This document shows positions 2,794 to 9,716 of a DNA stretch of 64,000 bases, one piece after another (position 1 is the first letter of the stretch; the number at the start of each line of letters is the position of its first letter). The notes under the pieces were generated by a model that saw only the letters and a list, made by a program, of their open reading frames with translations, was not told the DNA's origin and ran no database searches. Source of the stretch: Escherichia coli (GTDB taxonomy: Bacteria > Pseudomonadota > Gammaproteobacteria > Enterobacterales > Enterobacteriaceae). Location of the stretch: NCBI RefSeq assembly GCF_003334815.1, contig NZ_QOWO01000017.1; one strand, given 5' to 3'. Position numbers and translations under genes: made by a program.

Positions 2794-3222
2794 TTAGTGC
2801 CACCACATCATGCCCTGAACGGTCGCTGCTGCAACTGCAACATAGCGTAACGCTTTACCAAGGCACAAAAAAAAGATTACCGGTCCCCACGAGATGCGCA
2901 TCCATCCCGCTAACAGACACAGTAAATCGCCAACCACGGGCATCCAGCTTAATAATAGCGTGACTGCACCATAGCGTTTCAGCCAGCCGGTAGCTTTCTC
3001 TTGCCAGCGCGATGTTTTACGCAATGGAAAGAAACGCCCAAGGATAACGTTAGTTAACCCTCCAAGGCTATTACCCATTGTTGCTGTTAAAACTAAAACC
3101 CAGGGATGACTGATCCCGGAAAGCAACATTGCCACCAGCACGACTTCGGAGTTGCCGGGTAATAGTGTAGCGCTGAGAAAACTACTGGCAAACAACGAGA
3201 AAAGCGATAACGCTTCACTCAC
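2794..3222 (-). CDS. yqaA: DedA/SNARE-associated family inner membrane protein YqaA
   Basis: 142 aa hydrophobic protein; position and sequence match YqaA. Confidence 0.85.
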   Translation of the reverse strand: MSEALSLFSLFASSFLSATLLPGNSEVVLVAMLLSGISHPWVLVLTATMGNSLGGLTNVILGRFFPLRKTSRWQEKATGWLKRYGAVTLLLSWMPVVGDLLCLLAGWMRISWGPVIFFLCLGKALRYVAVAAATVQGMMWWH

Positions 3223-3785
3223 AGCAAGCGAACATCCACGGCGTCCATGCCTGCTGCACGGGCCGCCTGAATACCGAAATCGGCATCTTCAAAGACCACA
3301 CACTGCGTCGGTTGCACGCCCATACGCTGCGCGCACAACAAAAATGTGTCTGGCGCGGGTTTATGGTGTTTGACGTGATCGGCAGCGACGACGGCGTCAA
3401 AATAATGGCGTAATCCCAGGTGCGCCAGCAATGCCTCAGCGATGGCGCTTTCACTCCCCGTTCCTACAGCCATTGGGCGACGACCATGCCAACTTTTCAC
3501 CACATCAACAAGAGGAAGCGGTTCGACGCTATCCAGCAGCATACTTCTTACTGCTTCTGTTTTTTCACGCGCTAACGCATGCGGGTCGAGATCGGCCTGA
3601 TTCAGCTCAATAATTGCCTGAGCAATACGCCAGGTGGGCGATCCATTAAGCGCAATCATCGCCTGAATATCGTACTGAAGACCGTAGTGCCCTAATACTT
3701 CGCGCCACGCTTTACGGTGCGTAGGCTCCGTATCCAGGATTGTGCCATCCATATCAAAAATTAAACCTGCATAACGCTCGTACAT
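3219..3785 (-). CDS. yqaB: HAD-superfamily sugar phosphatase YqaB
   Basis: 188 aa; HAD motif I FDMDGT near the N-terminus; overlaps yqaA stop by 4 nt. Confidence 0.9.
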   Translation of the reverse strand: MYERYAGLIFDMDGTILDTEPTHRKAWREVLGHYGLQYDIQAMIALNGSPTWRIAQAIIELNQADLDPHALAREKTEAVRSMLLDSVEPLPLVDVVKSWHGRRPMAVGTGSESAIAEALLAHLGLRHYFDAVVAADHVKHHKPAPDTFLLCAQRMGVQPTQCVVFEDADFGIQAARAAGMDAVDVRLL

Positions 3786-3932
3786 GGTCTTCTCGCAAGT
3801 CGAAAAATATGACGCTACTTTAGCGTAATTGCTTGATTTTGTCGCTGATGGCGAAGGAGAAGAAAATTCAGGAAATGGATAAAGGAGTTATTTAGAAATG
3901 AGATATTTTTGAAGGAAATTTTTTGGAGAAGA

Positions 3933-3950
3933 TGGTGCATCCGGGAGGAT
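3933..3950 (-). repeat. tRNA-Arg 3'-end fragment (about 17 nt) inside the inter-tRNA repeat unit
   Basis: tggtgcatccgggagga is identical to the 3' end of the full tRNA-Arg copies, then diverges. Confidence 0.7.
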
Positions 3951-4065
3951 GACTCACTGACGTTCGCCCTTCGGGCCGTTGCTGGCGCAACGTTATCCTT
4001 CCTGGTGCCTGCGGTTAATACCGCTATCTCTTCGATACCTTCATTGCTGAAGGTTACGGAGAATA

Positions 4066-4142
4066 TGGTGCATCCGGGAGGATTCGAACCTCCGACCGCT
4101 CGGTTCGTAGCCGAGTACTCTATCCAGCTGAGCTACGGATGC
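4066..4142 (-). tRNA. argV: tRNA-Arg (anticodon ACG)
   Basis: Reverse complement reads GCATCCGTAGCTCAGCTGGATAGAGTACTCGGCTACGAACCGAGCGGTCGGAGGTTCGAATCCTCCCGGATGCACCA. Confidence 0.95.
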
Positions 4143-4205
4143 ATCGGGAAAACTTATTCTACTGCTGATATTGATACCGCTACTAAAGCCATATCAATTA
4201 AGAGA

Positions 4206-4223
4206 TGGTGCATCCGGGAGGAT
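4206..4223 (-). repeat. Second tRNA-Arg 3'-end fragment inside the inter-tRNA repeat unit
   Basis: tggtgcatccgggaggat matches the tRNA-Arg 3' end; the ~275 bp unit is repeated. Confidence 0.7.
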
Positions 4224-4340
4224 TACTCGCCTTGCGGCTCGCCCTTCGGGCCGTTGCTAAAGCAACGTTATCATCCCTAGTGCCTGCGGTTAATACCGCT
4301 ATCTCTTCGATACCTTCATTGCTGAAGGTTACGGAGAATA

Positions 4341-4417
4341 TGGTGCATCCGGGAGGATTCGAACCTCCGACCGCTCGGTTCGTAGCCGAGTACTCTATCC
4401 AGCTGAGCTACGGATGC
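4341..4417 (-). tRNA. argV: tRNA-Arg (anticodon ACG), second copy
   Basis: Identical 77 nt sequence to the copy at 4066..4142. Confidence 0.95.
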
Positions 4418-4420
4418 AAA

Positions 4421-4513
4421 TGGCGGTGAGGCGGGGATTCGAACCCCGGATGCAGCTTTTGACCGCATACTCCCTTAGCAGGGGAGCGCCTTCAGCCTCT
4501 CGGCCACCTCACC
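4421..4513 (-). tRNA. serV: tRNA-Ser (anticodon GCU)
   Basis: Reverse complement reads GGTGAGGTGGCCGAGAGGCTGAAGGCGCTCCCCTGCTAAGGGAGTATGCGGTCAAAAGCTGCATCCGGGGTTCGAATCCCCGCCTCACCGCCA, a long-variable-arm Ser tRNA. Confidence 0.95.
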
Positions 4514-4575: not shown

Positions 4576-4603
4576 ATATTACTTTCTGAGACTTATAAGT
4601 CAA
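4576..4603 (-). promoter_or_regulatory. Putative sigma-70 promoter of the serV-arg tRNA operon (stringent type)
   Basis: Minus strand reads TTGACT, 16 nt, TAATAT, then GC-rich discriminator GTGCGCC, about 55 nt upstream of the tRNA-Ser 5' end. Confidence 0.5.
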
Positions 4604-4828: not shown

Positions 4829-5014
4829 TTAGTAACTGGACTGCTGGGATTTTTCAGCCTGGATACGCTGGTAGATCTCTTCACGGTGAACAGAAACTTC
4901 CTTCGGGGCATTTACGCCAATACGTACCTGGTTGCCCTTTACCCCTAAAACTGTCACGGTGACCTCATCCCCAATCATGAGGGTCTCACCAACTCGACGA
5001 GTCAGAATCAGCAT
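4829..5014 (-). CDS. csrA: Carbon storage regulator CsrA
   Basis: 61 aa translation [48 protein letters not shown]... recognised as CsrA. Confidence 0.97.
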
Positions 5015-5248: not shown

Positions 5249-7879
5249 TTATTGCAATTTCGCGCTGACCCAGCCTTTCACACTGGCTAACGCTGCAGGT
5301 AAGGCCGCAGCATCCGTACCACCGGCTTGCGCCATGTCAGGACGTCCACCACCCTTGCCGCCCACCTGCTGAGCGACCATACCAATCAGTTCCCCTGCTT
5401 TCACACGATCTGTGACGTCCTTAGATACGCCTGCAATCAGAGAAACCTTACCTTCGACTACCGTTGCCAGCACGATAATTGTCGACCCCAGCTGATTTTT
5501 TAAATCGTCAACCATGGTACGCAACATTTTCGGCTCAACACCGCTAAGCTCGCTAACCAACAGCTTAACACCATTAACATCAATTGCCTTACTGGAAAGA
5601 TTTGCGCTCTCCTGTGCGGCAGCTTGTTCTTTAAGCTGTTGTAACTCTTTTTCCAGCTGACGCGTACGTTCCAGTACTGAGCGCACTTTATCAGCCAGAT
5701 TATTGCTATCGCCTTTCAGCAGATGCGCGACTTCGCTTAAGCGATCGCTGTCTGCATGAACGGTGGCGATAGCACCTTCTCCGGTTACCGCTTCGATACG
5801 ACGAACGCCTGCAGCAGTACCCGATTCAGAGATGATGCGGAACAGACCAATATCACCAGTGCGGCTGGCGTGAGTACCGCCACACAACTCGGTAGAGAAA
5901 TCGCCCATGCTCAGCACGCGTACGCGCTCATCATACTTCTCGCCGAACAGCGCCATCGCACCTTTCGCTTTCGCCGCTTCGAGATCCATGATGTTGGTTT
6001 CGATCGGCAAATTGCGACGAATCTGTGTGTTCACCAGGTCTTCGACCGCACGAATCTCTTCTGGTTTCATCGCTTCGTTGTGTGAGAAGTCGAAGCGCAG
6101 CACCTTGTCGTTAACCAGTGAACCTTTCTGCGATACATGAGTACCCAGAACCTGGCGCAGCGCAGCGTGCATCAGGTGCGTTGCGGAGTGATTCAGACGA
6201 ATACGGGCGCGACGAGCCTCATCAACATCAGCCTGCACCGCGTCGCCCACTTTCAGAGAACCCGCAGCAAGTTTACCGATGTGACCAATCGCCTGGCCGT
6301 ATTTCTGCGTATCTTCCACCGCAAAGGAGAAGTTAGCGCCTTTCAGTTCGCCTTTATCGCCAACCTGACCGCCGGATTCCGCATAGAATGGCGTTTGATC
6401 CAGCACGACCACAGCTTCCTGGCCTGCATTGATGGCATCAACCGCTTTACCATCAACAAACAGCGCAGTCACTTTGCCGTTCAGTTCCAGATGGTCATAG
6501 CCTTTAAATTCAGATGCACTGTCAACACGGATCATTGCGTTGTAATCGGCACCAAAGCCGCTGGCTTCGCGCGCGCGACGACGCTGCTCTTCCATTGCAG
6601 CTTCAAAACCAGCTTCGTCAACTTTGATGTTGCGCTCACGACAAACATCAGCCGTCAGGTCAACCGGGAAGCCATAGGTGTCGTACAGACGGAAAGCAGT
6701 TTCACCATCCAGCGTATCACCAGAAAGTTTTGCCAGCTCTTCATCCAGCAACGCCAGACCGCGCTCCAGAGTACGAGCAAACTGCTCTTCTTCAGTCTTC
6801 AGCACCTGCTCAACCTGCGCCTGCTGGCGTTTCAGGTCTTCACCCGCAGAGCCCATAACGTCGATCAGCGGACCAACCAGTTTGTAGAAGAAGGTTTCTT
6901 TCGCGCCGAGCATATTACCGTGACGCACTGCGCGACGAATGATACGACGCAGTACATAACCACGGTTTTCATTGGACGGCATTACGCCATCCGCGATCAG
7001 GAACGCACAAGAACGAATGTGGTCAGCGATTACGCGCAGCGATTTATTGCTCAGATCGGTTGCGCCAGTGACTTTCGCTACCGCCTGGATCAGCGTGCGG
7101 AACAGGTCGATGTCATAGTTAGAGTTAACGTGTTGCAGCACCGCAGCAATACGCTCCAGACCCATACCGGTATCTACAGACGGCTTCGGCAGCGGTTCCA
7201 TCGTGCCATCGGCCTGGCGGTTGAACTGCATGAAGACGATGTTCCAGATCTCAATGTAGCGGTCGCCGTCTTCTTCCGGGCTTCCCGGAGGGCCCCCCCA
7301 AATGTGGTCGCCGTGATCGTAGAAGATTTCGGTGCACGGGCCGCACGGACCAGTGTCACCCATCTGCCAGAAGTTGTCAGATGCGTATGGCGCACCTTTG
7401 TTATCGCCGATGCGAATAATACGTTCGCGCGGGATCCCTACTTCTTTTTCCCAGATTTCGTAGGCTTCGTCGTCGCTTTCATAGACGGTAACCCACAGAC
7501 GCTCTTTCGGCAGGGCAAACCATTTTTCGCTGGTCAGCAGTTCCCATGCAAACTGAATGGCATCGTGTTTGAAATAGTCGCCGAAGCTGAAGTTGCCCAG
7601 CATTTCGAAGAAGGTATGGTGACGCGCGGTGTAACCGACGTTTTCCAGGTCGTTGTGTTTACCACCCGCACGCACGCAGCGTTGGGAAGTGGTAGCGCGG
7701 GAATAATTACGCTTGTCGAGCCCAAGGAACACATCCTTGAACTGGTTCATCCCGGCGTTGGTAAACAACAAAGTTGGGTCGTTATGGGGTACCAGGGAGC
7801 TGCTGGCAACTACCTGATGTCCCTTACTATGGAAAAAGTCGAGAAACGCCTGACGGATCTCAGCGGTGCTCTTGCTCAT
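5249..7879 (-). CDS. alaS: Alanine--tRNA ligase
   Basis: 876 aa translation recognised as AlaRS (class II motifs, C-terminal editing domain). Confidence 0.97.
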
Positions 7880-8006: not shown

Positions 8007-8507
8007 TCAGTCGGCAAAATTTCGCCAAATCTCCTGGATATCTTCCATCAGATAGCCACGATAGAGCAGAAAACGCTGGATCTTAACTTTTTCTGAAAAG
8101 ACAGTTGGCAAAGGTTCGCCATATTTTCGCGTCGCCTGATCGCGCGCCAGTGCGCACCAGTCGATGTCACATTCACGCATCGCTTTTTCTGTCGCTTCGC
8201 GGGAAATACCTTTCTGATTCAGTTCCTGGCGAATACGCGCAGGTCCATAACCTTTGCGGCTACGGCTGGCGATAAAGCGCGCAACAAATCGGCTGTCATC
8301 GAGATAGCCATGTTCATGGCACCAGGCAATAACGCGCTCGTAATCTTCTGCCGTAGCATCAATCTCTTCTGGGCCATTTTTGCCCATAATCGGTGCCGCG
8401 AGTTTACGTCGCAGTTCTTGCTCACTGTGATCGCGCACCGCCAGAATGCGTACCGCACGATCCAACAGGCGAGCATATGCCGGGCGACGGGATGTTGATT
8501 CTGTCAT
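8007..8507 (-). CDS. recX: RecA regulator RecX
   Basis: 166 aa translation recognised as RecX; immediately downstream of recA. Confidence 0.93.

Positions 8508-8575: not shown

Positions 8576-9716
<1,141 letters not shown>

Follow-up and report, generated by a model that had tools for sequence, protein, structure and literature searches.

The serV–argV tRNA operon of Escherichia coli, as it stands in a 64,000-nt stretch of contig NZ_QOWO01000017.1 (the window), raises two questions: why it carries only two tRNA-Arg(ACG) genes, and what the short copies of the tRNA-Arg 3' end are that recur outside these genes. An original prediction, made from the letters alone, had regarded the array as contracted and the fragments as relics of duplication or pseudo-tRNA stubs. 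The explanation that covers both questions best, and that we hold to be probable, is that the source is a phylogroup-A-like E. coli in whose operon a two-copy allele arose by unequal crossover, and that the fragments are the tails of elements of the RtT family. The operon, the redundancy of its copies and the RtT family were known already. In relation to the annotation and the literature searched, the presence of RtT relatives in the Arg spacers, the existence of short forms and the adaptation of the helix strands to the host tRNA are new.

The gene order and the flanks, which show 100% identity with those of numerous E. coli genomes, among them K-12, identify the locus as the E. coli yqaA-yqaB / Arg array / serV / csrA-alaS region. 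ARAGORN detected exactly three tRNA genes in the window, each on the minus strand, in agreement with the Rfam tRNA model. The two tRNA-Arg(ACG) genes were determined to be one identical 77-nt sequence with starts 275 bp apart, as originally described (ARAGORN, Rfam and sequence match). The 3-nt distance given for tRNA-Ser(GCU) was also correct, but its order was not, since serV comes first in the minus-strand transcript. A tRNA of 77 nt, an RtT-family element of 135 nt and a leader of 63 nt make up the 275-bp repeat, and the order along the transcript is promoter-like site, serV, TTT, Arg, 135-nt element, 63-nt leader, Arg, 133-nt element, 147-nt trailer and yqaB.

The 17-mer TGGTGCATCCGGGAGGA occurs at 3933, 4066, 4206 and 4341, while 0.03 occurrences are expected from shuffled sequences and none of the 100 shuffles reached four. 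The predicted copies of the tRNA 3' end at 3933 and 4206 were thus present, but their identity with tRNA-Arg extended over 18 nt (3933-3950) and 19 nt (4206-4224), including the CCA, instead of 17–18 nt. Each of the two elements that end in these tails begins at the base after a tRNA-Arg CCA, on the same strand and inside the tRNA operon. In the local truncated mode, the internal element matched the RtT model RF00391 with 34.3 bits (E=1.8e-5) and the terminal element with 28.7 bits (E=4.7e-4), both at model positions 46-130; a 3-kb search gave 27.1 and 22.8 bits, respectively, and the model has a curated gathering threshold of 45 bits. The hairpins of the conserved 3' core and its junction motifs were found in the Arg elements by comparison with the model consensus and the short-form alignments. 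Furthermore, the core of the Arg elements was identical to that of the K-12 tRNA-Lys RtT elements at 40-46 of 52 positions (77-88%), whereas the two helix strands shared only 33-44%. Judged from these sequence comparisons, the fragments are the 3' tails of short-form RtT-family elements which lie below the Rfam threshold. The sequence into which they had been said to diverge is not unrelated, as it is the conserved core of the family.

The RtT elements of tyrT (RF00391; 178-bp repeats; gene rttR in K-12) share several features with the Arg elements. Both lie directly after a tRNA in the same orientation, end in the last 18-19 nt of the upstream tRNA including the CCA, have a tail which pairs internally and may form tandem repeats. 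The 3' core is also shared and comprises AACGUUGC...GCAACG, CCCGAAGGGCGA, a variable hairpin and GAGUMAUCC. In K-12 tyrT, 175-178-nt units follow tRNA-Tyr, each ending in its last 19 nt, and score 133-137 bits against RF00391. In contrast, the Arg elements measure 133-135 nt, do not have the GGAUGAGAACC...GGUUCGA region, score 23-34 bits and carry a tRNA-Arg tail with its complement. A tpr-like ORF was not evident in them, as judged by reading the sequences only, and the same reading for ATG-started ORFs in the element sequences yielded only MKVSKR followed by a stop.

A closer counterpart is provided by the K-12 operon lysT-valT-lysW-valZ-lysY-lysZ-lysQ, where an RtT element with a tRNA-Lys tail (46.7-60 bits) follows every tRNA-Lys. 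The short Lys forms resemble the Arg elements in architecture, in the junction GGAUAACGUUGC and in the CCA-ended tail copied from the host; in both, GGA is joined directly to UAACGUUGC. They differ in that both strands of the Lys closing helix are tRNA-Lys sequence and that this helix has about 9 bp, compared with 13 positions in Arg. The Lys elements pass the Rfam threshold partly because the 5' half of the model aligns onto the tRNA itself. As a separate observation, the same terminator-like hairpin (AAAAAAGCGCCCTAAAGGCGCTTTTTTGC) stands before and after the long-form RtT element that follows lysQ in K-12, so the duplicated block there extends past the CCA.

The predicted folding of the two elements was similar. 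With RNAfold, the internal element gave -51.7 kcal/mol (z=-4.09) and the terminal element -49.9 kcal/mol (z=-4.77) with the same fold. The internal element comprises two small 5' hairpins at 4284-4340 and a 78-nt acceptor/T-stem-like stem with three hairpins at 4206-4283; the corresponding stem region of the terminal element is 3933-4008. In the predicted closing helix, the tail (tRNA positions 60-72) pairs with the internal motif GCAC(C/U)AGG(G/A)A(G/U)GA. It encloses the three hairpins, namely AACGUUGC...GCAACG, CCCGAAGGG and a variable one, and leaves the 3' ACCA single-stranded. The outermost pairs G-C, C-G and A-U are those of tRNA-Arg. Because of the tail helix and the free ACCA, the modelled element appears to imitate the acceptor/T-arm half of tRNA-Arg. 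A comparison can be made with tRNA minihelices (acceptor/T-arm) and with tRNA-like 3' ends, e.g. the tRNA-like domain of tmRNA. The Arg element would resemble them in its coaxial acceptor and T-stem-like helix and its single-stranded NCCA 3' end, and would differ in that about 50 nt in three hairpins replace the T-loop and that the helix has two mismatches. A resemblance to the hammerhead ribozyme (GAUGAG...CGA) was considered as well and rejected on inspection, as the invariant C3, U4 and A14 are absent. No Rfam ribozyme match was obtained for the scanned E. coli short-form elements; these lack GAUGAG...CGA, and no motif-bearing long-form locus was included in the scan.

The closing helix was followed through an alignment of 19 short-form elements (Arg, Lys and one Pro-type). 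Pairing was found in 85.7% of the cells, compared with 30-45% when the partners were slid, and the covariation score of 0.143 exceeded that of the shuffles (0.069 +/- 0.008; reached in 0 of 500). At five pairs of this helix, both partners differ between the Arg, Lys and Pro types. Helices 2 and 3 were paired in 98% and helix 4 carried compensatory changes. In the long forms, the summed score of 42 distinct elements in a fixed register was 177 with their own tails and 129.9 +/- 6.5 in the shuffles, none of which (0 of 20,000) reached the observed value; at the six variable positions the mean was 4.31 with the own tail and 2.91 with a foreign one. When the complete 13-nt tail was scanned along all upstream positions, no signal was obtained (9.25 own and 8.76 foreign).

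The arrangement of the array in other strains shows what belongs together with the tail. The four Arg genes of K-12 start 275, 139 and 275 bp apart and are separated by spacers of 198, 62 and 198 nt, and one more element follows the last of them. From these spacings, the array is made of three modules: the tRNA of 77 nt, a leader of 62-64 nt and an optional element of 133-136 nt, which sits between the tRNA CCA and the leader. Spacers of 62-64 nt without a fragment connect argY and argZ in K-12 and are found at every tRNA-to-tRNA junction of CFT073 and the ST131-type array. The leader or trailer sequence is the same after a tRNA as after a tail, and the fragment is present or absent only jointly with the whole 133-136 nt element, as in 101EVA. 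With a flank-only query in a sample of 58 genomes, the locus spanned 2,619-3,169 bp. The span does not map one-to-one onto copy number, as shown by D8, where three tRNAs separated by short spacers go with a span of 2,626 bp. At least 11 architectures were distinguished from one representative read per span class, with variation in both the number of tRNAs (2-5) and the choice of spacers that bear an element; judged from these representatives, every span class keeps at least one Arg-type element. No feature is listed for the Arg spacers in the RefSeq annotation of K-12 and the representative loci, because the elements score under the Rfam threshold.

Some arrays hold incomplete or interrupted units. 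A 102-nt spacer in O157 and WCHEC040047 is a truncated element with the 5' hairpin part only, and the terminal element of WCHEC040047 has a deletion between two GCACCA motifs. Partial deletions driven by short internal repeats are therefore found in some lineages as well. In strain WG5 (NZ_CP024090.1) the yqaB-csrA interval measured 4,533 bp, with the IS3-like ISSen4 in or beside the array.

The explanation originally offered for the fragments was that they are inert duplication relics or truncated pseudo-tRNA stubs beside unrelated spacer sequence. The identity of the tail with the tRNA 3' end agrees with this, and so does the internal complement, which resembles the acceptor 5' strand of a tRNA joined to its T-stem 5' strand and makes a tRNA-derived origin in the distant past plausible. 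The units of Photorhabdus described below, where a near-complete tRNA-Lys 5' part is fused to the core, point in the same direction. However, the same array contains fragment-free tRNA-to-tRNA junctions, the adjoining sequence is a core common to the Lys and Tyr elements, and the helix to which the tail contributes a strand stays paired across tRNA types. The alignments also show conservation of the core beyond the tail, which is not what neutral evolution would leave. Arg-type elements were also detected in Enterobacter cloacae, Kosakonia cowanii and Brenneria roseae; they are therefore old and not by-products of a recent E. coli duplication. No tRNA was called at 3933-4065 or 4206-4340 by ARAGORN or the Rfam tRNA model. 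A pseudo-tRNA stub thus describes the element only loosely, in that it carries tRNA-derived sequence, as no remnant of a cloverleaf was recognized. An origin of the fragments as duplication by-products does not agree with the fragment-free spacers of 62-64 nt and with the same type of tail after Tyr, Lys and other tRNAs. We regard the relic explanation as very unlikely.

Several results speak against the assignment to the RtT family or narrow it. Both elements are under the gathering threshold of RF00391, and the 5' half of the model (positions 1-45, with the GGAUGAGAACC...GGUUCGA hairpin region) has no counterpart in them. Internal elements are dispensable, since the arrays of CFT073, the ST131-type and D8 have a terminal element only. 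In 101EVA even the terminal element is precisely absent, with the trailer directly after the CCA of the last tRNA. In addition, the covariation of the helix could be partly inherited from the complementary strands of the tRNA rather than selected.

The occurrence of the family outside E. coli was studied by scanning species-representative genomes with the core pattern CCCGAAGGGYGA...GARTMATCC, which matched at least 120 stretches. Among the matches listed, nearly all named ones belonged to Gammaproteobacteria, from Enterobacterales to Salinisphaera, Thioalkalivibrio, Chromatiaceae, Rheinheimera and Marinobacter. In 63 first-unit elements from many genera, a tRNA gene lies directly upstream and the tail is the 3' end of that tRNA, usually over 18-19 nt and in a few cases over 11-14 nt. 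The host tRNAs represent at least eight amino-acid types: Tyr, Lys, Arg (ACG, CCG, UCU, UCG), Ser (GCU, GGA, CGA), Gln, Pro, Glu and Asp. The tail fitted the host tRNA in nearly all elements checked, and tandem arrays reached at least 13 units. A rule that tail and complement follow the host tRNA was not found stated in the literature searched. The following observations were made alongside. Many non-enteric long-form elements start with a terminator-like hairpin directly after the tRNA. Photorhabdus caribbeanensis and three further loci contain at least 13 tandem units of about 175 nt. A unit of this type consists of the tRNA-Lys 5' part (positions 1-57), the RtT core and the tRNA-Lys 3' end from position 58/59; it reads as a tRNA gene with a T-loop insert of about 65 nt and may bear on the origin of the family. 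In a Rhodanobacteraceae metagenome-assembled genome (MAG), a gammaproteobacterial MAG and Tahibacter soli, the core pattern is present in numerous copies per genome, away from tRNAs and lacking a CCA-ended tail, and these repeats may be a different dispersed repeat which shares the CCCGAAGGG hairpin region.

The regular position behind tRNAs would also be expected if the tRNA 3' end and the tail were repeats of the attL/attR type, bounding a tiny non-autonomous element or an island remnant that was inserted by a recombinase crossing over in the T-loop. The identity blocks of tRNA-integrating elements run from the T-loop to the CCA, and the duplicated block here likewise runs from the T-loop (position 58/59) to the CCA. 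The sequence after the tail equals that after an element-free tRNA, presence and absence are precise, and one core stands behind many different tRNAs. On the other hand, the repeats are only 116-160 nt apart, and the cargo in the window amounts to 116-119 nt. No integrase is annotated among the neighbouring genes (yqaA, yqaB, csrA and alaS), and att sites are not characterized by tandem arrays or by an internal complement of the tail. The precise loss is explained equally well by recombination between the 17-19 nt repeats. Such an integrated element is considered highly improbable as an account of the fragments. For the origin of the RtT-type elements themselves, three routes can be considered: insertion into the T-loop of a spare tRNA copy, duplication of the att type, or tandem duplication of the T-arm.

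The number of tRNA-Arg(ACG) genes was determined across the species. The 77-nt gene gave 21,504 matches in 5,426 complete E. coli genomes, with a mean of 3.96, a median of 4, a minimum of 1 and a maximum of 9 per genome, and a match of at least 99% identity was present in all 5,426. Among 60 evenly spaced genomes, four copies were counted in 52, three copies in three, five in two, and two and six copies in one each, and the sample also held K-12 strain DH1Ec169 with four; the six-copy genome is XL10-Gold, where two pieces were joined. Two copies were found in at least 39 of the 5,426 genomes (about 1%), including O104:H4 2011C-3493, S17-1 and MC1061. The two copies of the window, as assembled, are a true reduction compared with the species norm. 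This is in accordance with the original reading of the locus against the four Arg genes of K-12, and the comparison across genomes which it had proposed resulted in a rare two-copy allele. In Stbl4, TOP10 and XL10-Gold, six tRNA-Arg matches each were recorded, including split matches beside 'hypothetical protein' features, which suggests extra or rearranged Arg copies in these laboratory lineages. In MC1061, the promoter-distal tRNA-Arg has a C-to-T change near its 5' end, with GTAGTTCAGC replacing GTAGCTCAGC; this strain may therefore have only one wild-type Arg copy.

The two-copy allele can be derived from a four-copy array in a single step. Strain 52F4, whose array is spaced 275/139/275, contains the tRNA-spacer-tRNA block of the window (352 nt) at 100% identity as its argZ-argQ block. 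When 414 bp, from the argV start to the argZ start, were deleted in silico from 52F4, the window was obtained with 1 mismatch in 2,404 nt, located outside the array. One crossover within the identical tRNA genes is therefore sufficient. The internal element had four substitutions compared with K-12 and none compared with 52F4 in a base-by-base comparison. The proposed event is one unequal homologous crossover between argV and argZ (identical 77 nt) in a four-copy parent of the 52F4 type, which would remove one 414-bp unit (275 + 139 bp). More generally, recombination among the tRNA, leader and element repeats would shift both copy number and element occupancy. The contraction by unequal recombination that had been suggested for the array is thus reproduced by the 52F4 deletion. 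Other two-copy alleles were of different structure: that of MC1061 equals K-12 without argV..argZ, that of TUM9812 is consistent with the loss of argY..argQ, and that of G1/2 is a mosaic of two element copies. The contraction of the array therefore recurs via different crossovers.

The same sequence would be obtained if the strain had four tRNA-Arg genes and the assembler had collapsed one 414-bp repeat unit. The window corresponds to a four-copy allele minus exactly one repeat unit. The closest relatives according to the 24-kb flank (LAU-OXA, A14, NCTC9041 and LR-64-2) carry four copies each, although BR1220 and G1/2 with identical flanks do not. No identical two-copy allele was found in the 5,426 complete genomes, the best match being MC1061 with 99.7%. 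However, the two-copy alleles of at least 39 finished genomes, generated by at least three different crossovers, indicate that this state is natural and recurrent. The repeat copies also differ at several positions, so that in our judgement a collapse would more often break the contig than join it in register, and the array sits within 64 kb of contiguous sequence. An assembly artefact is consequently rated as unlikely, although with more weight than the relic or att-type explanations of the fragments, and the unequal crossover is preferred.

Features of the tRNA-Arg locus in the window, in the order of transcription
Feature	Position	Strand	Basis and remarks
Candidate promoter-like site upstream of serV	4576-4603	minus	TTGACT, 16-nt spacer, TAATAT, then GC-rich GTGCGCCACGC; consensus match only
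tRNA-Ser(GCU), serV position, first gene of the operon	4421-4513	minus	ARAGORN; Rfam tRNA 56.8 bits; K-12 synteny
tRNA-Arg(ACG) copy 1, argV position	4341-4417	minus	ARAGORN; Rfam tRNA 67.1 bits; 3 nt (TTT) after serV
Internal short-form RtT-family element (putative), 135 nt	4206-4340	minus	RF00391 match, RNAfold and core identity
63-nt leader before the second tRNA-Arg	4143-4205	minus	Sequence of the type that forms the short spacers (62-64 nt) between tRNAs in K-12, CFT073 and O157
tRNA-Arg(ACG) copy 2, argQ position	4066-4142	minus	ARAGORN; Rfam tRNA 67.1 bits; flanks match the argQ context of K-12 and 52F4
Terminal short-form RtT-family element (putative), 133 nt	3933-4065	minus	RF00391 match and RNAfold; identical to the K-12 post-argQ element
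147-nt trailer, from the last element to the yqaB start codon	3786-3932	minus	Holds a weak terminator-like hairpin at 3812-3826

The order of the surrounding genes is that of K-12, all on the minus strand: gshA (1165-2721), yqaA (2794-3222), yqaB (3219-3785), the array, csrA (4829-5014) and alaS (5249-7879). The minus-strand ORFs at 8007-8507 and 8576-9652 are presumably recX and recA, in line with the K-12 gene order. The plus-strand ORFs at 3909-4280 and 4205-4429 run antisense to the tRNA genes. The correspondence with the K-12 operon serV-argV-argY-argZ-argQ includes the flanks, tRNAs, leader, elements and trailer, and the window is one 414-bp unit shorter.

The operon would be transcribed on the minus strand from the promoter-like site near 4576-4603. 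No promoter- or terminator-like sites were found on the transcribed strand within the spacers, and because of this the elements are probably co-transcribed with the tRNAs. Small RNAs derived from spacers or trailers of tRNA operons, such as 3'ETS-leuZ, are known; by analogy, the Arg element would be a processing by-product of a tRNA operon able to persist as RNA, the two sequences being unrelated. According to PMC4986893, tyrT and further tRNA operons release RNAs of the RtT family, and such RNAs were seen on Northern blots in Actinobacillus. As reported for the rtT RNA of tyrT, the enzymes of tRNA maturation would be expected to cut the Arg spacer to a discrete CCA-ended RNA; the candidates are nucleases that trim 3' ends and perhaps RNase P, with G4283 and G4008 as its sites. 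The reason for expecting this release is that a tRNA CCA directly precedes the element, that its own 3' end is a CCA and that its helix resembles an acceptor stem. A required cis role in the maturation of tRNA-Arg is unlikely, because CFT073, the ST131-type array and D8 have no internal elements at all.

A wider proposal, which we put forward as possible but doubtful, is that the RtT-type elements constitute one widespread gammaproteobacterial class of tRNA half-mimics. Such elements would have an acceptor/T-stem-like helix with a free NCCA end and a conserved core of three to five hairpins in place of the T-loop, and both strands of the helix would be re-matched to the host tRNA (Arg, Lys, Tyr, Ser, Gln, Pro, Glu, Asp). 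The machinery of tRNA maturation might excise them, and they might then serve as decoys or sensors specific to a tRNA, e.g. for factors reading uncharged acceptor ends. Alternatively, they may have spread as small insertions targeting the T-loop.

For the organism, the reduced copy number concerns a tRNA which, after A34-to-I editing, decodes the commonest arginine codons. The tRNA-Arg(ACG) genes are the four-gene tRNA-Arg2 family argVYZQ, and the claim that its dosage matters is supported by the argYZQ deletion, where tRNA-Arg2 was 16-fold lower and a growth defect was observed in rich medium (PMC13170351). With reference to that phenotype, the natural two-copy allele could cost fitness or reflect relaxed selection. 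The two-copy allele also serves as a simple marker of the speed of array recombination. For the RtT family, the assignment of the short forms would link three E. coli tRNA operons, tyr, lys and arg. What was taken for a tRNA fragment would be a structural part of the element, and provides a testable handle on the RtT family.

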